A stretch of 64,000 nucleotides of DNA from Sedimentisphaerales bacterium (GTDB lineage Bacteria; Planctomycetota; Phycisphaerae; Sedimentisphaerales; UBA12454), in the NCBI GenBank assembly GCA_049518795.1, contig JBEKRK010000002.1, forward strand, positions 564,146 through 628,145, given 5' to 3'. The notes beneath the pieces are model-generated. The model made no database searches. It was given only the letters and a program-made list of their open reading frames with translations, and had not been told where the DNA came from. Position 1 is the stretch's first letter, and each line of letters begins with the position of its first letter. This document shows, one piece after another, positions 7,232 through 62,088 of the stretch. The translations under genes and the position numbers were made by a program.

Positions 7232-8383
7232 TTATGCGGTTTTTCTCCTTAAAAGAGTAAGCCCTCCAAACGTTAGCAGGCAAATTGTTGCCGGTTCGGG
7301 TATAGGTTGCCAAAGGATTGCGTGACTATTGGCCCCCATGTCATCAGTTGCATAGCCGACGATGTTGCCATTTATGTCGATACCTTCGGCAAAAGAATTG
7401 GTGAAATTACCCGGCAGGAACTGGTGCAAATCAATGTAGTTCTCGGCTGAGCCGTTCCAGAGCAGGGCGTGGGCGTGGTTGCTCGTGATCTCGCCATATC
7501 CGACCTGCTGTGTGCCGTTGGTGCCGTAGGCAACAGAACCGTAGAATCCAGCAGGGGTCAAATTGACATAGCTGTCGGCGGAGCCATTCCAGAGCAGGGC
7601 CTGGCCATCGCCACATCCGACCTGCTGTGTGCCGCTGATGCTGTAGGCATAAGACTGGCTGAACCCGGTGGGATTCAAATCGACGCAAGTTTCGGCCGAG
7701 CCATTCCAGAGAAGGGCGTGGTCGTAGTGCGTAGCCGGCCAGTAGCCACTACCAACCTGTTGTGTGCCGCTGATGTCGAAGGCACGAGATTTACCGAACC
7801 CGCTGGGGTTCAAATCGACGTAATTGTCTGGGGAGCCATTCCAGAGTAGGGCGTGGTCGCCGCCGTAGCCCGTAGCCTTGCCATTGCCATAGCCGACCTG
7901 CTGTGTGCCGTTGGTGCCATAGGCATAAGAATTGTCGAAGCCATTTGGGTTCAAGTCTACGCAGCTTGCCGCACTGCCACTCCAAAGAAAGGCGTGGTCG
8001 TAGAGCGTGTAGACCGTGATTGGAACGCCTCCCCAGCCGACCTGCTGTATGCCGTTGGTGCTGTAGGCATAAGAACTACTGAACTCAATGGGGTTCAAAT
8101 CGACATAGCCGGTTGCCGAGCCGTTCCAGAGCAGAGCGTGGCAGTAGTAGCCTGTGGCCGAACCAGAACCATAGCCGGCCTGCTGCGTGCCGCTGACCCC
8201 AAAAGCATAAGAGGTAGTAAATCCGCTGGGATTTAAATCTATTGCTGTGTAGGTTGTTCCCCAGGCAGGGTTTGCTGCGCCGGCTGCAAAAACCATCGCT
8301 GCGAAAAACACTAAATAGACATTCCTTCCATCTTCGCCAAGGCTTCGGCGGATAAAGTTGTGGCTTACAATTAACTTTTTCAT
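7232..8383 (-). CDS. PEP-CTERM protein with seven HAF-type extracellular repeats
   Basis: Signal peptide. Seven units of HALLWNGSAxxYVDLNPxGFxxSYAYGxxGTQQVGxG. C-terminus IPEPATICLLTFGGLTLLRRKTA. SD aaaaggagagg lies upstream. Confidence 0.85.
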   Translation of the reverse strand: MKKLIVSHNFIRRSLGEDGRNVYLVFFAAMVFAAGAANPAWGTTYTAIDLNPSGFTTSYAFGVSGTQQAGYGSGSATGYYCHALLWNGSATGYVDLNPIEFSSSYAYSTNGIQQVGWGGVPITVYTLYDHAFLWSGSAASCVDLNPNGFDNSYAYGTNGTQQVGYGNGKATGYGGDHALLWNGSPDNYVDLNPSGFGKSRAFDISGTQQVGSGYWPATHYDHALLWNGSAETCVDLNPTGFSQSYAYSISGTQQVGCGDGQALLWNGSADSYVNLTPAGFYGSVAYGTNGTQQVGYGEITSNHAHALLWNGSAENYIDLHQFLPGNFTNSFAEGIDINGNIVGYATDDMGANSHAILWQPIPEPATICLLTFGGLTLLRRKTA

Positions 8384-21508: not shown

Positions 21509-22090
21509 ATGAAACTACCTGAAATAAAAAATCCGGATAGGTATGTTGACCTTTATGTTGTTGACTTCGGCGACCATAGCGGAGTCGGTTTTACCGCTGA
21601 TGAAGTTGCAGAACTGCTGGAAAGCGAGCAATTCAAAGACGTGAAAGCATATAGAATCTATAAGGCTTATCCAGACGGCAAAATGGAATTGGAAGGAGTG
21701 CCGAGCGGGATTTTCCAGCTTGAGGCGGGAATGTTTTTCTATGAGATTGAGAAAGGTGCCGCTCAAGACGATTATAAAAAACTGATAAACTCCGCTGTCG
21801 CAAACACACCGCCCATAAGAGCAAAGGTTCATCTTGCAAAATACAGCGATGAAAAATTTGTTACCGCGATAATTTTCCCTGCTGAATATAAAGACCAGTT
21901 CAGCAAATGGCTGCTTGATATTGATTATAAAACAGCCGGGCCTGCAGAAGGGGGAATTGAAGCGGCCAAGCGATATTACGCAGATAAGCCGGAGATACTA
22001 GAAAGACATCAATTATTCGGTCAACAAAAATTTGAAAGTTTGACCGGAACGGAACTTTTGGCAGCGACGAAAAAAGCGGTTGTCCGATGA
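21509..22090 (+). CDS. hypothetical protein
   Basis: 193-aa ORF starting immediately after the tyrS stop (TAAATG). Confidence 0.6.
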   Translation: MKLPEIKNPDRYVDLYVVDFGDHSGVGFTADEVAELLESEQFKDVKAYRIYKAYPDGKMELEGVPSGIFQLEAGMFFYEIEKGAAQDDYKKLINSAVANTPPIRAKVHLAKYSDEKFVTAIIFPAEYKDQFSKWLLDIDYKTAGPAEGGIEAAKRYYADKPEILERHQLFGQQKFESLTGTELLAATKKAVVR

Positions 22091-22287
22091 GAATTGAAGA
22101 TTTAAAATTGAAGATTGAAAATTACGGAATTTCTTTCTTGTTATTTATTTCTTCTTTATTCAAAAGAAAAGCAACATCAGCGGATTTGAAAAAGATGGAA
22201 TTTTCGACTTCAACGCAAAAAATGGGGGTTAGTTTCACGGATAAAATGAGGGATATTTTCCGCCATAAATGGATAAAAAAAGCATAG
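22087..22287 (+). CDS. small hypothetical protein (doubtful)
   Basis: 66-aa ORF with ATGA overlap to the upstream gene. The first 13 codons are encoded by a dispersed attgaagattgaaaatt repeat. Confidence 0.3.
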   Translation: MRIEDLKLKIENYGISFLLFISSLFKRKATSADLKKMEFSTSTQKMGVSFTDKMRDIFRHKWIKKA

Positions 22288-25905: not shown

Positions 25906-26118
25906 AAATAAATTCTAAAAAGTTACAAAAATGTAGCATTCCAGTATCCCAGAAAAAAACAGAAAGTCAACCCCGCACCTATTTTGAAGATTCCATTAGC
26001 GCTTTTATCTGTTTTCGCCTTCTTTCCTGAAATTCCTGCTCTGACATTCGCATTTTCAGAATAAAAATAGGTACGGGGTTGCATTTAAAACACTTATTAA
26101 TTATATTACATTTGCCTC

Positions 26119-26185: not shown

Positions 26186-26235
26186 TTGTTTGGTGAGGCC
26201 GCTAACTGATTAACTCCAGATTGACAGGTGAAGAA

Positions 26236-27630
26236 ATGGCAGATGCTGTAACGCCCGAAATTGAAGGAATAGTGCCTGAAAAGACACCCAAAGACCCGTT
26301 TTTGACGGAATTGGCAAGGCTTGCAAAGCAGAATAACAAGATTGAGCCTGAGCTATTCGAAAAATTCGATGTCAAGCGAGGCCTTCGCAATTCGGACGGC
26401 ACGGGAGTCCTTGTCGGCCTTACCGAAATCGGCGACGTCCACGGCTATATCATCAGCGAAAAAGAAAAAGTGGCCGTGGCCGGCAGGTTAAGATACCGCG
26501 GTATGGAAATAGAAGATATAGTTGCCGGCTTTCAAAAAGAAAAAAGGCACGGTTTTGAAGAGACCGCTTATCTTCTGCTGTTCGGCGAGCTGCCGAAGAA
26601 AAAAGATTTGACGAAATTTTGTCGTCTTTTAGGCAAAAACAGAGTTTTGCCGGAAGGCTTTGCCGAGAATATGATTCTTAAAGCGCCGAGCAATAATGTG
26701 ATGAACAAGCTGGCGCGGAGCGTTCTGGCTGCCTATTCTTACGATAAAACGCCGGAAGAACGGTCGATAAAAAATATTCTTCGCCAGTGTATAGGATTGA
26801 TTGCCCGGTTTCCGACTTTTGCCGCTTACGGCTATCAGGCCAAGTCCCATTATTATGACGGCGAGAGCCTGTATTTGCATTCTCCGGACGAAAAACTTTC
26901 AACCGCGGAAAACTTTCTGCTGATGACAAGGCCGGACAAAAAATATACGAAAACAGAAGCTGATTTGCTCGACCTTTGCCTTGTTCTGCACGCTGACCAC
27001 GGCGGCGGAAACAACTCAACTTTTGTCGCTCACGTCGTTACCTCTTCGGATACCGATGTTTATTCGTCCGTTGCAGCCGCTATCGGCTCGCTGAAAGGCA
27101 ATAAACACGGCGGAGCGAATATCCGGGTTATTCAAATGATGGACAATATAAAGCAGAACGTCAAAAATCTGGAAAGCGAAGGACAGGTCGCCGATTATCT
27201 GGCGAAGATTGTCAGAAAAGAGGCGTTTGACGGTTCAGGTCTGATTTATGGTTTGGGACACGCGGTTTATACAATTTCAGACCCGCGAACCGAGCTTTTG
27301 AAAAAACAGGCGGCAAGACTTGCAAAGGAAAAAGACCTTGATTGGGAGTTTGAATTTTATTCCCTGGTTGAAAGGCTGGCGCCGGCAGTTTTTCAGGAAG
27401 TCAAAAAATCTCAAAAGAAAGTTTGTCCCAATGTGGATTTTTATTCCGGTTTTGTTTACAGAATGCTCGGTATTCCTACCGAATTATATACTCCGATTTT
27501 CGCGATAGCGAGAATCGCCGGCTGGTGTGCACATATTATTGAAGAAAACGTTAGCGGCGGACGAATAATGAGACCGGCATATAAAAGCGTTGCTGAAAAA
27601 AGAGAATATATACCGACTTCAAAAAGATAA
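26236..27630 (+). CDS. gltA: citrate synthase
   Basis: LHADHGGGNNSTF, GLGHAVY and NVDFYSG motifs. Start set at ATG 26236 (MADAV); the track ORF begins at TTG 26221. Confidence 0.9.
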   Translation: MADAVTPEIEGIVPEKTPKDPFLTELARLAKQNNKIEPELFEKFDVKRGLRNSDGTGVLVGLTEIGDVHGYIISEKEKVAVAGRLRYRGMEIEDIVAGFQKEKRHGFEETAYLLLFGELPKKKDLTKFCRLLGKNRVLPEGFAENMILKAPSNNVMNKLARSVLAAYSYDKTPEERSIKNILRQCIGLIARFPTFAAYGYQAKSHYYDGESLYLHSPDEKLSTAENFLLMTRPDKKYTKTEADLLDLCLVLHADHGGGNNSTFVAHVVTSSDTDVYSSVAAAIGSLKGNKHGGANIRVIQMMDNIKQNVKNLESEGQVADYLAKIVRKEAFDGSGLIYGLGHAVYTISDPRTELLKKQAARLAKEKDLDWEFEFYSLVERLAPAVFQEVKKSQKKVCPNVDFYSGFVYRMLGIPTELYTPIFAIARIAGWCAHIIEENVSGGRIMRPAYKSVAEKREYIPTSKR

Positions 27631-27667
27631 TTTGAAATCTCAAATTTGAAATTTCAAATTTCAGAAG
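27631..27667. repeat. family-4 repeat (TTTGAGATTTGAAATTTCAGAAG type) between convergent genes, possible bidirectional terminator
   Basis: tttgaaatctcaaatttgaaatttcaaatttcagaag fills the whole gltA/trxB gap. Confidence 0.7.
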
Positions 27668-28663
27668 TTACCATTCGCTCGGCATAAGGGCGTCTGAAAT
27701 CGGTTTTTTCCACCAGGCAGGGTCTCTTAGATACTGCTTTGTCATCATCGCTGCGTTCACGCCGTCGCCGACAGCGGTTGCGAGCTGCATAGCCGCCGCT
27801 ACCCGGCAGTCGCCGGCGACAAAAACACCCGGCACTTTTGTCCGCAGAAAGCCGACATCGCATTTGATGAAGCCCGCCTCGGTAAGGTCGAGAAACCCCT
27901 TAAAAAATGAGGTATTCGGGACTGTTCCGACAAAAATAAAAATGCCGTCACAGGACACGGTATCTTGGGCTTCTGTTTGGATGTTTTTGAGCCAGACTTT
28001 TTCCACTTTTTTATCGCCTTCAATAGCGACAACGACAGTATCTAATTTTAATCTAAAATTACTGTTGGGACTATTTACCTTGTTCATTAGCTCTTCAACA
28101 AGGACTTTTGTCGCTCTGAATTCCTGCCGCCGATGAACAAGTGTCAATTCTGACGCGAATTTTGCAACGTGCAGTGATTCTTCAACAGCGGTATTTCCGC
28201 CGCCGACGGTAACAACCTTTTTGCCTTTGAAAAAAGGAGCATCGCAGATTCCGCAATAACTCACGCCGGCGCCTGCGTTTCTGAATTTATCTTCGCCCGG
28301 CACTCCGAGTTTTCGATAATCGCTGCCGCAGGCGATAATCACCGACCGGCCAACAAAACTTTCTTTATCGCAATTGACCTGTATATTGCCGTCCGCAAGA
28401 CGGACAAGTTTTTTTACTTCACAGCCGAGTTTAAATTCAGCGCCGAAATTTTCCGCCTGCTTTTTCATTTTTTCAATCAAATCCGAACCTGAAATATTTT
28501 CATAGCCGGGGTAATTTTCGATTCTATCGGTATTTATTATTTGGCCGCCGGGGTAGAATTTTTCGAGGATAACTGTTCTTAATCGGTCTCTTGCGTTATA
28601 GAGCGCTGCTGCAAGGCCGGCGGGGCCTGCGCCTATGATGATGGAATCATATAAACCAGTCAT
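27668..28663 (-). CDS. trxB: thioredoxin-disulfide reductase-like flavoprotein
   Basis: [11 protein letters not shown] motif, [15 protein letters not shown] motif, GVFVAGD. The redox motif reads CGIC rather than the usual CATC/CAVC. Confidence 0.8.
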
Positions 28664-47202: not shown

Positions 47203-47234
47203 AAAGGCTGTGAATTTTTTCACAGCCTTTTTTT
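47203..47234. terminator. bidirectional intrinsic terminator between convergent genes
   Basis: aaaaggctgtg-aatttttt-cacagcc-ttttttt: an A-tract and a T-tract flank a 7-bp GC-rich stem. Confidence 0.7.
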
Positions 47235-48708
47235 CAGTATTTTCTGGTTTTGGCAGAATTTGAGCTGTTGTAATTCACGAAGAAATACCGCAGAGCGTCA
47301 ATTGGATGGTCGTAAATACCGTCCTTTAAAGGCAATTCTTCCGCACCTTCCTGCGGATAATGATAACACTGCATAGCCTCAATAAGCCTGCCGCAGCGAG
47401 GACTGATAACAAAATTGCTTCGTCCATCGCCGCTGCGCAAAGCCCTGCGAATAAGCTCTATTCCTTCCAATATCGAACTGCGTTTATAACGAAGTATTAC
47501 GCTGGCCTTTCTTAATTGAAAAACAGGACTTGTGCCTGTAACATCATTTACGCCAGCTCCCGCAGGGTCGCAAAAAGTAGCAATAATCCGCTCTTCGCTG
47601 AAAGGTATCCTGTTTTTTATCTCGTCAGCGTGAACGTCAATCGTCTGCCTGCTTTGGACATATTCATCAATGACGCGAACAGTTCCATTTCCGTCAATCT
47701 GAATCCACAAACATACAAACGGATTGACAAAGCCAAAGTCAATCGCGCGATACAGCGGCAAAGCCGGATTATAATCGACAGACGCAATGTGCACGTCAGG
47801 CTCGAATTCCGCAAAGACAACGTTTTCAAGCGATGGCCGAAGACAAAGCATTTCAGACTCAAAGGCGGCTCTGCTGCTCCGCCGCATCTGTGCCAGAACG
47901 TCATCTATCTTCAAATAGCCTGACGCTTTTCTCGCTCTGCCCCGGCAATCGTTATTCAGCGGACATCTTGAGCAGCTTCTGTCCGGCGGACAATTTTCAA
48001 TAACTTCCCAGACGCACCATTTGAAAATCGGCGTTCCGCAGGAAGAGGCCTTGCCGACAAGCTCGTGCATAATGCCGAAAGGCTGATGCATCGTGCTAAG
48101 CGATTCTATTGCACCGACAATTTCATTAGTGCTTTTGGTAACGAACTTTGCCGCTTCGAGAATCTGCCTGTCGAAAAGCTCAACCTCATCACAACGTAAT
48201 TTCTGGATATGACTGCCGCGAACGGAAGCCGCCGATTGGGTGAGAACTTCGACATCTGAGCCGTTAAGGAAGCTGCATTTATTTTTATGAACAGGTTCGG
48301 AAAGAAAACCTTCAAAACCTTTTCTTAAAAATTCGAGCAGGTAATCGAACATTCTTTGAGCCTGCAATTCACTGCCGGCGAGGATTCTAACTTTACAGTC
48401 AGGCTTAAAGATACAATCCAGCAGCGTAGCAACAGCGGCCAAAAGTGTCTTTCCGCCTCCGCGGCCTGCCCAGACGACACAATCCTTTGAGATTTGAGAT
48501 TTGAAATTTCAGAGAAGCAATGCTAAAGATAATCCATCGGCGTATTATGTTCAGGACAGATTTTTGCCTCGCCGATGTCAAGGCCGAGAAAGACTTTGAG
48601 ATAATTTTTTAAATCGGTTCTTGTCAGCGGTCTTGTTTTTTTAAGAGTTTGGTAAAAACTATTTGCTTTTAAAAGATGCTGCGGAGATAGAATGATTGAG
48701 TTGTGCAT
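47234..48708 (-). pseudogene. phage terminase large subunit, interrupted near the N-terminus (fragments 48523..48708 and 47234..48508)
   Basis: Own upstream extension of the 402-aa ORF reads NFKSQISKDCVVWAGRGGGKTLLAAVATLL. The Walker A (GRGGGKT) therefore lies upstream of the only usable start codon. A 61-aa ORF ending ...CPEHNTPMDYL lies upstream in another frame. A family-4 repeat sits at the junction. Confidence 0.65.
48488..48514. repeat. family-4 repeat at the terminase break point
   Basis: tgagatttgagatttgaaatttcagag. Confidence 0.75.
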
Positions 48709-48747: not shown

Positions 48748-48824
48748 GAGTTATCAGTTATCGGTAACTCGGTTATCAGTAACCAAATATAAACTGATAA
48801 CCGATAACTGAATTACCGATAACT
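48748..48824. repeat. long imperfect inverted repeat built from TTATCGGTAAC-like units
   Basis: The left arm gagttatcagttatcggtaactcggttatcagtaacc pairs with the right arm aactgataaccgataactgaattaccgataact. Lies between the GH30 stop and the terminase fragment. Confidence 0.7.
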
Positions 48825-52320: not shown

Positions 52321-52350
52321 TTGCACAAAATGCTGTTTTTATGGTATATT
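52321..52350 (+). promoter_or_regulatory. promoter candidate for RNase P RNA (TTGCAC-N18-TATATT with TG extension)
   Basis: ttgcac at 52321-52326 and tggtatatt ending at 52350, about 25 nt upstream of the predicted mature 5' end. Confidence 0.4.
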
Positions 52351-52375
52351 ATGCTTTGCTGATAAAGATTTTTTT

Positions 52376-52769
52376 GTCTGGCTGGTCGAGCGGCCGCCCC
52401 CTCAGCTTCTTGCGAAGCAAGAGAGGGGGAGGAAAGTCCGGGCAGGACAGGGCACAGCGATGGCTAACGGCCACTATGAGATTTCAAATTTGAGATTTCA
52501 GAAGGAAAGTGCCACAGAAAATACACCGCCAATTTGAGATTTGAGATTTCAAATTTGAGATTGGTAAGGGTGAAAAGGTGCGGTAAGAGCGCACCGCGGT
52601 TCTGGCGACAGAACCGGCAGGGCAAACCCCGCTGCCTGCAAGACCAAGTATGCCGGTATGCTTTGCCCGAGCGTTAATCCGGCGGGTAGGTCGCTTGAGA
52701 TTGTCGGCAACGGCAGTCCTTAGAGAAATGGTCGCATAAAACAGAACCCGGCTTACGGACCTGCCAGAC
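52376..52769 (+). ncRNA. rnpB: RNase P RNA, bacterial type A
   Basis: GAGGAAAGTCCGGGC (P4), GTGCCACAGAAAATACACCGCC, GGTAAGGGTGAAAAGGTGCGGTAAGAGCGCACC, GGGTAGGTCGCTTGAG, ACAGAACCCGGCTTAC. P1 pairing of gtctggctggtc with gacctgccagac. Confidence 0.92.
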
Positions 52770-52888
52770 AAAAAATTCAAAAGTGTAGAACCACGACACG
52801 GGGAATAAATTTTTTCATTTTCTTCTTTTTTTTTCGTTCGATTATAGGATAAGAAGAGGCAGATTTTCTTATAAGCAGGGATTTGGCG

Positions 52889-54232
52889 ATGGTAAGGAAA
52901 CTGGTTTTTGCAGCGTTTGTTATAGGGTTTTGTTTTTGTCCAATGCTGCGCGGAGAGGAGAAAACTGCTGATGATGCCGCTAAAAAGGTAACCGACCTCA
53001 AACATCCAACCGACTGGCTTGAACTTGGCGGAGATTTTCGTTTCCGGTTTGCGTATGATAATGCCCGCAATCTCGACAATAAAGCTTTCGGACACGAGAG
53101 AATCCAAATGCGTTTTCGCGCAAGAGTGCAGGCGAAGATAAGATTAACCGACGACCTTGACTTTAATATACGGCTTATGACAGAGCCGCGATATTATATC
53201 AGGGCTGAGGCAGAGCCGCACCATTGGGCATATAACGAGGCGCTGTTCGATAAGTTAAACCTGACATGGAGAAACGCGTTCGATTTGCCAATGACGATAG
53301 TCGCCGGCAGGCAGGAAATAATACTCGGCAGCGGCTGGCTCGTTTGTGACGGCACACCGTTAGACGGCGGCAGAACCGCTTACTTTGATGCTCTGCGATT
53401 CACATATAATATTGATTCCAACACCACGGCAGATGTCATATTGATTGACAATCACGCCGACAGCGCGAAATGGTTCAAACCCTTTAACGACAGGGACATC
53501 GACCTTTCGGAACAGGACGAGCGGGGAGCCATATTGTATTTTAACAAGAAAACCTCGAAAGATTCCGGCATTGACCTGTATTTAATTTACAAACACGACG
53601 CTCATCGAATCGTAAGCAGCGGCTCTGAAGGCGAAATTTACACACTCGGCACCAGATTCTACGGCAAATTAAACGACCACTGGCAATACAGTGCCGAATT
53701 TGCGCCGCAATTCGGGCACAAAAACGGCAAAAGTCTCGGCGCATTCGGAACAAACAATCAGTTGATTTATAATTTCAACGATGAAAAGAAAAACAGGATA
53801 TATCTCGGCTACGAATATCTTTCCGGCAGCCGAGACCCCGATAAGAATTTCGACAGGGGCTGGGGACGCGTTGATACCTGGAGCTATCTATATCAGGGCA
53901 ATATCGATGCCATTGACGGCAGAGCGTATGACAATTCCAATATGCACAGGATTTACACGGACTGGGCGACTAACCTTACTGAAAAGACAGAACTGAAAAC
54001 CGGCTATGCGATTCTGTTTGCAGACGAGAACACCAATAAAGCCGGCACCGGCGGAATGAGCGAACACGGCAAATTACGCGGACATCTGCTCAGGACGGTG
54101 CTTTCATACAAGCCGACTAAAAACATAGAACACAAACTGGAAGGCGAAGTGTTTATCCCCGGCAATTTCTACAGCGACGACAGAAACGACGTCGCTGTGT
54201 TTTTCAGATATAATCTGATTTTTACCTGGTAG
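52889..54232 (+). CDS. outer-membrane beta-barrel porin (alginate-export/AlgE-like family candidate)
   Basis: Signal peptide. Alternating-strand composition. C-terminal aromatic terminus RYNLIFTW. ATG 52889 preferred over TTG 52883. Confidence 0.65.
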   Translation: MVRKLVFAAFVIGFCFCPMLRGEEKTADDAAKKVTDLKHPTDWLELGGDFRFRFAYDNARNLDNKAFGHERIQMRFRARVQAKIRLTDDLDFNIRLMTEPRYYIRAEAEPHHWAYNEALFDKLNLTWRNAFDLPMTIVAGRQEIILGSGWLVCDGTPLDGGRTAYFDALRFTYNIDSNTTADVILIDNHADSAKWFKPFNDRDIDLSEQDERGAILYFNKKTSKDSGIDLYLIYKHDAHRIVSSGSEGEIYTLGTRFYGKLNDHWQYSAEFAPQFGHKNGKSLGAFGTNNQLIYNFNDEKKNRIYLGYEYLSGSRDPDKNFDRGWGRVDTWSYLYQGNIDAIDGRAYDNSNMHRIYTDWATNLTEKTELKTGYAILFADENTNKAGTGGMSEHGKLRGHLLRTVLSYKPTKNIEHKLEGEVFIPGNFYSDDRNDVAVFFRYNLIFTW

Positions 54233-59903: not shown

Positions 59904-60025
59904 AAGGAATTCCTTTTATTTAAAATTGAAGATTGAAAATTTGAATTTGACTTATATTTTGTTATGAGGTAGAGTGAATTTATGAATGACGAGAGGTTAA
60001 TTGCGTTTTTGAAGGGAACGGAAAA

Positions 60026-61287: not shown

Positions 61288-62088
61288 TTACTCCGCTATG
61301 GGATGGCTTACGCCACTCGGATTCTTGTAAATTACCTCAGCTTCGCCTGCCAGATGCTTTATGACGATTACATCCGGCAGCAAGTCAACCAGCAGGTCAT
61401 CGTGTGAGCTTGCGAGGACAAAGATTTTGCCGGTTTTTGTCGCGAATTTACGCAGGTTATAGCTGATAATCGCTGCTGTTACACGGTCGAGATTGCTGCA
61501 GAACTCATCGGCGAAGATAAATTGTTTATCGCTTGTAATAGCCTTTGCTATGCGGTATCTGTATTTTTGTCCTTCACTTAAGTTGGCGGGAGAATTGAGA
61601 ACGCAAAAGACATCTGTCAGACCCGCGCAGCTTAAATTTCTAAGCGTTTCAAGAACCCCGCACCTATTGTCCTGTTTCGTCCCCAACCCAAAATCATTTC
61701 GATTGCCATTTGTTGAATCAGTTGTTTCTTGGTTTTGGCACTGTGCAATAGGTGTGGGGTCGATGCAGTCAACGCAGGTTTTGTCATCGGGCAGGGGAAT
61801 ATCATCAATGTTGATTTTTTCACCGCCGGCAAAAGTGTTATAAAATTCTCTTAGCAGAACGCTTTTTCCGCTGCCGGAAGGGCCGGTGATGTAGGCAATT
61901 TGACCGGACGACAGTTTAATATCGCATTGATGCGTAATGGCGTTGTTTTTTAGTCTTTGAACCGTTATTCCAAAGGCTCGCAGGACGTCCGCGACTTTTT
62001 CAGTGACAGGCAGATTCCAATCGAATTTTTTGTCCGCCTTAAGCGAGACCTCGCCAAGAGGCGGGTTGGCAGATAATATTGTAATCAT
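61288..62088 (-). CDS. soluble ABC-type ATPase (no transmembrane partner nearby)
   Basis: Walker A GPSGSGKS, signature LSEGQKYR, Walker B FIFADEF, D-loop SNLD, H-loop SSHD. Codons 8-18 are encoded by a family-1 repeat. Confidence 0.75.
   Translation of the reverse strand: MITILSANPPLGEVSLKADKKFDWNLPVTEKVADVLRAFGITVQRLKNNAITHQCDIKLSSGQIAYITGPSGSGKSVLLREFYNTFAGGEKINIDDIPLPDDKTCVDCIDPTPIAQCQNQETTDSTNGNRNDFGLGTKQDNRCGVLETLRNLSCAGLTDVFCVLNSPANLSEGQKYRYRIAKAITSDKQFIFADEFCSNLDRVTAAIISYNLRKFATKTGKIFVLASSHDDLLVDLLPDVIVIKHLAGEAEVIYKNPSGVSHPIAE
62034..62065. repeat. family-1 palindromic repeat, intragenic
   Basis: ccgccttaagcgagacctcgccaagaggcggg, translated on the minus strand as PPLGEVSLKAD. Confidence 0.8.

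Follow-up and report, generated by a model that had tools for sequence, protein, structure and literature searches.

The window, that is, the whole 64-kb stretch of DNA analysed here, was searched against Rfam with cmscan and contained one match over threshold, RNaseP_bact_a (RF00010), which corresponds to a 394-nt class A RNase P RNA gene (rnpB) on the plus strand. The match scored 290.8 bits (E = 4.7e-94; the RF00010 gathering score is 100 bits) and covered model positions 1-367 of 367, i.e. the full length of the model. The first-pass annotation, which had recognised a type A RNase P RNA at 52376-52769, was correct as to the gene and placed it 2 nt off. In the covariance-model alignment, all core helices were present together with the conserved P4 and J-region sequences. 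Both P4 strands (GAGGAAAGUCCGGGC and ACAGAACCCGGCUUA) were intact and aligned to the RF00010 consensus, as was GGGUAGG, the GGU motif of P15 that binds the tRNA CCA end in class A RNAs. The whole 394-nt RNA folded better than shuffled versions of itself (z = -6.85), and the intact core had a covariance score as good as those of rnpB from relatives. On these data, the gene is that of an ordinary class A RNase P RNA, presumably active, from a Sedimentisphaerales bacterium (Planctomycetota, Phycisphaerae). The same rnpB sequence was also found in ENA assembly ERZ27250059 (contig k141_314395; locus L087), which may share source data with the window. The features of the gene are as follows.

52322-52350, plus strand: candidate sigma-70-like promoter 5' of rnpB, TGCACA-17-TATATT with a TG extension, called by consensus scan alone
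52378-52771, plus strand: rnpB, class A RNase P RNA (RF00010, 290.8 bits)
52397-52429, plus strand: P3 hairpin CCCCCTCAGCTTCTTGCGAAGCAAGAGAGGGGG, a 33-nt module of which the same sequence is P12 in L045 and L064
52477-52500, plus strand: P9, heptamers TGAG/ATTTCAA/ATTTGAG/ATTTCA (covariance alignment, TRF and fold); relatives carry CCGGRGNRAYCCGCG here
52528-52565, plus strand: P12, native base CC/GG and four heptamer units at 52532-52559 (covariance alignment, TRF, unit regex and fold)
52543-52562, plus strand, within P12: 20-mer GAGATTTCAAATTTGAGATT, identical to 52478-52497 in P9 with 0 mismatches

A T7 run (52370-52376) precedes the P1 stem of rnpB and an A6 run (52772-52777) follows it, both of which are kept in the relatives L042 and L045; these runs could add 6-7 bp to P1 in the precursor RNA.

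P9 and P12 of the window are built of heptanucleotide units

AT-rich segments had been assigned to peripheral helices P9 and P12 from the sequence alone, and the covariance-model alignment bore this out, with gauuucaaauuuGAGAuuUCAG falling in the P9 hairpin columns of RF00010 and AAUUUGagauuugagauuucaaAUUUGAGAUUGG in the P12 columns. TRF reported a period of 7 for both segments (52479-52502 in P9 and 52532-52562 in P12). The units are ATTTGAR/ATTTCAR, at ~25% G+C over the two helices, and can be parsed as TGAG ATTTCAA ATTTGAG ATTTCAG in P9 and as ATTTGAG ATTTGAG ATTTCAA ATTTGAG in P12. With up to 3 mismatches allowed, the 20-mer common to P9 and P12 was also located at 27634-27655 and 48489-48508. 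The five matches observed, against 0.02 expected from shuffles, rule out a chance likeness between AT-rich hairpins.

Computed folds gave P9 a stem of 10 bp, where a 9-bp hairpin had been described, made of A-U and G·U pairs (52477-52486 with 52491-52500; -9.1 kcal/mol, z = -3.1) and closed by an AAUU loop in place of the GNRA tetraloop that is typical, if not universal, in class A L9. P12 folded into a 16-bp hairpin (52528-52565; 8+8 bp with a mismatch; -17.0 kcal/mol, z = -7.1), and both hairpins were kept in the minimum-energy fold of the full 394-nt RNA. Their stems depend on G·U pairs, UGAGAUUUCA being complementary to itself save for transitions. Since the 14-nt double unit (ATTTGAG + ATTTCAA) differs from its own reverse complement by transitions only, tandem copies fold via G·U into a regular hairpin on the strand that is transcribed. 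Such pairing is specific to one strand, as seen for the copy at 48486, which folds at -10.8 kcal/mol as plus-strand RNA versus -3.4 kcal/mol as minus-strand RNA.

Heptamer arrays are dispersed in the window and across the clade

Beyond rnpB, TRF and a unit regex identified four further heptamer arrays in the window.

22088-22123, plus strand: sister subfamily (ATTGAAG/ATTTAAA units), just past ORF 21509-22090, convergent with secA
27629-27664, no strand assigned: rnpB subfamily, taking up the 37-nt gap between the convergent genes gltA and trxB; hairpin on both strands
48486-48513, plus strand: rnpB subfamily, within a disrupted terminase large-subunit gene (47234-48708, minus strand); hairpin in plus-strand RNA only
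59918-59941, plus strand: sister subfamily (ATTGAAG/ATTTAAA units), 5' of a ParB-like gene

The two members of the rnpB subfamily are the matches previously noted between gltA (citrate synthase, 26221-27630) and trxB (thioredoxin reductase, 27668-28663) and at the terminase break, and the shared ...atttcagaag end noted with them was recovered as a common ...ATTTCAG/A end. The array at 48486-48513 coincides exactly with the frameshift and stop that split the terminase large-subunit homologue. This is the one site that was compared with intact orthologues: the array, ~31 nt long, stands where they have ~32 nt of coding sequence, and inspection by eye showed no direct repeat on its flanks. The terminase homologue lies in synteny near rnpB in three species and is a pseudogene in the window only; because this synteny is kept, the gene is probably a domesticated or defective prophage remnant. 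Between it and an SBBP-repeat gene, inverted heptamer arrays, (AGTTATC)n and (GATAACT)n, occupy 48749-48824, and the counterparts of this site in L042 (4369-4458) and L045 (5799-5875) are heptamer arrays with unrelated units. ORF 7232-8383 of the window contains longer tandem repeats at 7491-8003, with periods of 117 and 135 bp (2-3 copies, 72-77% matches), and presumably encodes a repeat protein.

AT-rich arrays with a period of 7, 14 or 21 are a general feature of the clade: after removal of duplicates, 57 were counted over 474 kb from the clade, versus 0 over 238 kb of unrelated loci. Their units vary (GAAGATT, AAGATTT, GAGATTT, AGTTATC and others), and the arrays are often inverted pairs, sometimes placed either side of a G+C hairpin. 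Directly 5' of rnpB, (GAAGATT)n arrays and their inverse occur in L042 (9204-9287) and L045 (9217-9347) and are absent from the same position in the window. Homologous intergenic sites of the window, L042 and L045 carry heptamer arrays with different unit sequences. Arrays also differ by whole units, both between strains and between species. The trxB-gltA spacer, for instance, holds 3 ATTTAAG units in L089 versus 4 in L090, though TrxB is identical. Whole-unit differences of this kind look like slippage.

The arrays of the rnpB type measured 24-36 nt (2-5 units) and had ragged 5' ends, with only the ATTTCAG/A end in common; neither fixed ends nor terminal inverted repeats were present in the heptamer arrays compared. 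What had been called a repeat family is therefore a dispersed family, as proposed, made up of arrays of 7-nt units with variable unit number and boundaries, and not copies of a discrete element. Change by whole units, differing units at homologous sites and arrays that stand in place of native sequence fit STRR-like or microsatellite-like repeats with turnover through slippage and short-patch exchange, not a transposable hairpin with fixed ends. The suggestion that the rnpB helices were themselves the source of the family was not supported and is rejected, since intergenic arrays of many different units occur throughout the clade and heptamers in rnpB are restricted to 3-4 species.

Heptamer helices are rare among related rnpB genes

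The ORF next to rnpB (52883-54232, 449 aa) encodes a protein with a 100% identical counterpart at NCBI from a 'Sedimentisphaerales bacterium' MAG. Syntenic relatives were identified through its homologues, the proteins of L042 and L045 being 83% and 79% identical, respectively, to that of the window. The rnpB cores of both loci are almost identical to that of the window, and their P9 and P12 are unrelated to it. L045 has CCGGAGAAAUCCGCG as P9 and a G+C-rich P12, while L042 has a 108-nt P9 and ~110 nt extra in P17. On comparison with these syntenic relatives, the heptamers of P9 and P12 substitute for native hairpins and are not added on top of them. In L046 and L093, synteny of the neighbouring gene with rnpB is lost.

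A lineage-specific pattern retrieved 40 loci from GTDB genomes, nearly all of them Sedimentisphaerales/Phycisphaerae MAGs, in which helix types were assigned by conserved-anchor segmentation together with covariance-model alignments. In ~30 of the ~40 related rnpB genes, P9 is 14-15 nt long with a GNRA loop (GAAA, GCGA, GUGA, GCAA or GUAA), and their P12 is short or built differently. Among these genes, a heptamer P9 was seen only in the window, L065 (2 units) and L071 (4 units; HGW-Planctomycetes-1), and across these three the P9 hairpin is the more stable the more units it has. In L086, P12 is short and AT-rich and finishes with the ...GAGATTGGTAAGG junction also found at the end of P12 of the window. 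No relative shares the P9 or P12 sequences of the window, and the original proposal that a dispersed repeat makes up these helices thus survives the comparison, which also speaks against rnpB as the origin of the family. A metagenome scan with a P13-P14 core pattern yielded 41 further rnpB genes, all distant, which served as out-group and negative-control DNA; P9 (with a GNRA loop) and P12 were G+C-rich in every one.

Since relatives combine a near-identical core with a P9 that mostly has a GNRA loop and with other kinds of P12, the heptamer helices are derived rather than ancestral and, as judged from these sequences, their occurrence is patchy. A rough tree of core positions, which is shallow (191 columns), placed the window as sister to the heptamer-free L042, and L065 and L071 as a separate pair. 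The heptamer P9 and P12 may accordingly have had one origin followed by losses, or several independent origins.

Palindromes and a 33-nt hairpin also occupy rnpB helices

Related rnpB genes range in length from ~370 to 644 nt among close relatives, and insertions take some of them to 576-644 nt. These insertions belong to a family of ~65-110-nt (~100-nt) palindromes with conserved ends, CCCGCACCTA...TAGGTGCGGG, and variable interiors, which sit at the tips of P3, P9, P12, P13, P17, the J15/18 junction and P19 in many relatives and of which the ~100-nt members fold at -47 to -53 kcal/mol. Counts of 21 copies in 22.7 kb of rnpB versus 4 in 412 kb of other DNA amount to a ~95-fold enrichment in rnpB. 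The ~100-nt palindrome had no Rfam match, even at a permissive E-value. Copies include the following, both of those in the window being outside rnpB.

25969-26080 of the window: palindrome in the secA-gltA spacer
61658-61757 of the window: palindrome in an ATPase ORF
L042 9404-9512 and 18478-18576; L071 143-207, 319-383 and 630-732; L078 3275-3931; and many others: palindromes in relatives

Relative to the orthologues in L042 and L045, an ABC/AAA-type ATPase ORF (61288-62088, minus strand) is 32 codons longer through clean, in-frame insertion of the copy at 61658-61757. The copy at 25969-26080, in the divergent secA-gltA spacer, adjoins a promoter-like TTGACT...GATACT of secA (putative -35 box). 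The corresponding spacers of L089 and L091 are 115-150 nt shorter and do not have the palindrome. The junction read by eye, ATGCAA / element / TTGACTTT in the window versus ATGCAAC TTGACTTT in L089, suggests a clean insertion here too.

A third kind of module was found in the 33-nt hairpin CCCCCTCNGCTTCTTGCGAAGCAAGAGAGGGGG, which serves as P3, P9 or P12 depending on the species: it is P3 in the window, P12 in L045 (9478-9510), both P3 and P12 in L055, and P9 in L067. The P12 of L055 is the exact reverse complement of the window's P3 hairpin. No copy outside rnpB was found in about 700 kb. The occurrence of this hairpin in different helices and orientations points to shuffling of the module between helices at the DNA level.

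These comparisons divide the earlier proposal that mobile hairpins had been inserted into, or had replaced, the variable helices of an essential ribozyme. Replacement of P9 and P12 by a dispersed repeat stands, given that the P9 and P12 of relatives differ. Mobility of the heptamers as a discrete element finds no support here, in view of the lack of fixed ends and terminal inverted repeats and of the equal-length replacement at the terminase site. The CCCGCACCTA...TAGGTGCGGG palindromes, by contrast, do show true insertion behaviour, and for the clade as a whole the description of mobile hairpins in variable helices of rnpB holds. The evidence thus makes rnpB of this clade a hot spot at which several families of repeats have settled.

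Comparison with known repeats in structural RNAs

STRR heptanucleotides in cyanobacteria reportedly lengthen P12, are not needed for activity in vitro and differ among close strains. The presence of STRR sequences inside rnpB of heterocyst-forming cyanobacteria is documented by Vioque (1997; Nucleic Acids Res 25:3471; PMC146911). As in the cyanobacteria, the repeats described here consist of tandem 7-nt units, other copies of which are scattered through intergenic DNA. They lie within the P12 helix of a class A RNase P RNA, making it longer, and close strains have unrelated repeats or none, which implies recent, repeated invasion. The likeness to STRR thus extends to the tandem 7-nt units, to their dispersal at other loci, and to a site in a peripheral helix at which relatives differ. 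The differences are several. The host is a MAG of Sedimentisphaerales, in the Planctomycetota; the rebuilding affects not only P12 but also P9, where the GNRA loop of L9 is lost; G·U pairing joins the quasi-palindromic units; and two other repeat modules coexist in rnpB of the clade. The AT-rich ATTTGAR/ATTTCAR units are, we presume, unrelated to those of cyanobacterial STRR, and we treat the window's heptamers as an analogue of STRR and not as the same family.

MITE/REP-type repeats make a poorer comparison, the heptamer arrays being without fixed ends or terminal inverted repeats and varying by whole units, and we found no open-access description of MITE/REP-type elements inside rnpB. A closer match to the CCCGCACCTA palindromes of the clade is provided by the Rickettsia palindromic elements, small hairpin repeats that are intergenic and also tolerated in functional genes (reviewed in PMC10969869); both show in-frame insertion into ORFs. 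The literature searched on repeats and insertions in rnpB and on planctomycete RNase P, the P finder paper included, the coverage of which was incomplete, gave no account of helices built of heptamers. Helices 25 and 45 of 23S rRNA carry intervening sequences that are excised by RNase III. These resemble the present case in being extra stem-loops at helix tips of an essential structural RNA, patchy among close relatives, and differ from it in that the stems of the window are short.

Origin of the heptamer helices

Taken together, the observations are probably best read as an STRR-like repeat invasion, combined with slippage, of dispensable helices. AT-rich heptanucleotide tandem repeats native to the lineage would have taken the place, in the DNA, of the distal parts of P9 and P12, both of them solvent-exposed helices. 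Arrays would be seeded by short-patch recombination, repair or slippage, and would subsequently gain and lose whole units via slippage. Loss of the native sequence could be explained by repair or recombination templated on another array. The P9 and P12 tips of class A RNase P RNAs are directed outwards from the catalytic core, and work on the E. coli and Thermotoga RNAs has described the distal parts of P9 and P12 as dispensable and L9 as contacting P1. Arrays might therefore persist in rnpB because these tips are not needed for catalysis and any sequence that keeps a helix is tolerated. Arrays of quasi-palindromic 14-mers would do just this, keeping the helix in place while its sequence and length drift. 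The probable cost of a heptamer P9 would be the contact made by the L9 GNRA tetraloop. The repeats would on this account be retained in the mature RNA and be neutral. Two observations run counter to the simplest form of this reading. Slippage alone lengthens a sequence, yet native sequence has been lost at P9, P12 and the terminase gene; and the identical 20-mer of P9 and P12 also fits copying from a single donor element.

That 20-mer, the near-identity of the sequence at four sites, the common ...ATTTCAG/A end and the disruption of a coding gene (the terminase) could also be taken to mean that a discrete non-autonomous element of MITE/REP type has transposed into the P9 and P12 loops, the gltA-trxB spacer and the terminase gene, where the heptamer hairpins would be its copies, and the colonisation of relatives' rnpB helices by an insertional palindromic family indicates that mobile hairpins do land there. 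We consider this unlikely, since the length is not fixed (24-36 nt, 2-5 units) and terminal inverted repeats are not defined, the terminase array is an equal-length substitution with no flanking duplication evident, unit number is polymorphic among strains and species, and the homologous spacers of relatives carry arrays of other units. A still smaller chance is given to the idea that the heptamer helices are selected modules, serving either as the binding site of a protein particular to the lineage or as an RNA turnover or regulatory signal that intergenic (terminator-like or mRNA-stabilising) hairpins also provide and that was recruited to RNase P RNA. Arrays do occupy conserved intergenic positions in several relatives (convergent gene ends, and 5' of the ParB-like gene), those in rnpB and at 48486 are oriented for folding as plus-strand RNA, and a heptamer P9 is kept in three species. 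Against this, most relatives, including the closest (L042), have no heptamer helices in rnpB, unit sequences are not conserved at homologous sites, one copy lies in a pseudogene in its non-transcribed sense, and we know of no partner protein for the heptamer hairpin.

Two further explanations concern what becomes of the segments and whether the gene is genuine. Were the segments to behave as rRNA intervening sequences do, they would be transcribed and excised, for example by RNase III, to leave a fragmented but assembled RNase P RNA. Their position at helix tips of a stable structural RNA is that of such sequences in rRNA, and the ~100-nt perfect stems at the same tips in relatives (-47 to -53 kcal/mol) would suit RNase III. 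For the window this is very unlikely, its stems being short and rich in A-U and G·U pairs (10 bp, and 8+8 bp with a mismatch) and therefore poor RNase III substrates. An assembly artefact or a decaying gene copy is hardly credible: short-read assemblies do often break within rnpB at repeats (L043, L044, L088 and L092), but the identical sequence is present in the ENA assembly L087 (which may share source data), independent species carry a homologous heptamer P9, and the core is intact and scores like those of relatives.

A bolder proposal, which we regard as doubtful though worth stating, is that rnpB is an actively targeted landing site for all three modules: the heptamer arrays, the 33-nt GC-clamped hairpin (in P3, P9 or P12, in either orientation) and the CCCGCACCTA palindromes. 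DNA-hairpin-specific or RNA-mediated insertion would then home to the loop tips of a structured, highly transcribed gene; the window's P9 and P12 would be one outcome of this, and the resulting ribozymes (394-644 nt) would either carry the modules or excise them. Excision would make theirs a naturally fragmented RNase P RNA.

Implications of a probable repeat invasion in rnpB

With invasion by STRR-like heptamers as the preferred reading, the entry of genomic heptanucleotide repeats into an essential ribozyme gene is not peculiar to cyanobacteria and recurs in a distant phylum. What would be new in this STRR-type invasion is the phylum, the units and the involvement of P9 alongside P12, earlier descriptions known to us being of P12 in cyanobacteria only. 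With P12 rebuilt, and P9 too (its L9 tetraloop removed), such genes serve as natural experiments that probe which parts RNase P RNA can do without. Quasi-palindromic 14-mers that pair via G·U also offer a simple rule by which a tandem DNA repeat can yield an RNA helix from one strand. More broadly, the analysis exposes a clade in which modular hairpin gain varies rnpB length over the ~370 to 644 nt range among close relatives, and thereby a tractable system for asking how small repeats get seeded.

There is also a practical side, in that short-read assemblies break at rnpB genes of this kind, which annotation may then truncate or overlook. The short-read contigs of L043, L044, L088 and L092 end within rnpB at repeat helices, and one MAG (JBGOWI01; L049 and L064) holds two rnpB alleles with different P12 on two contigs; together, these observations indicate that rnpB in the clade is prone to assembly breaks and bin heterogeneity.
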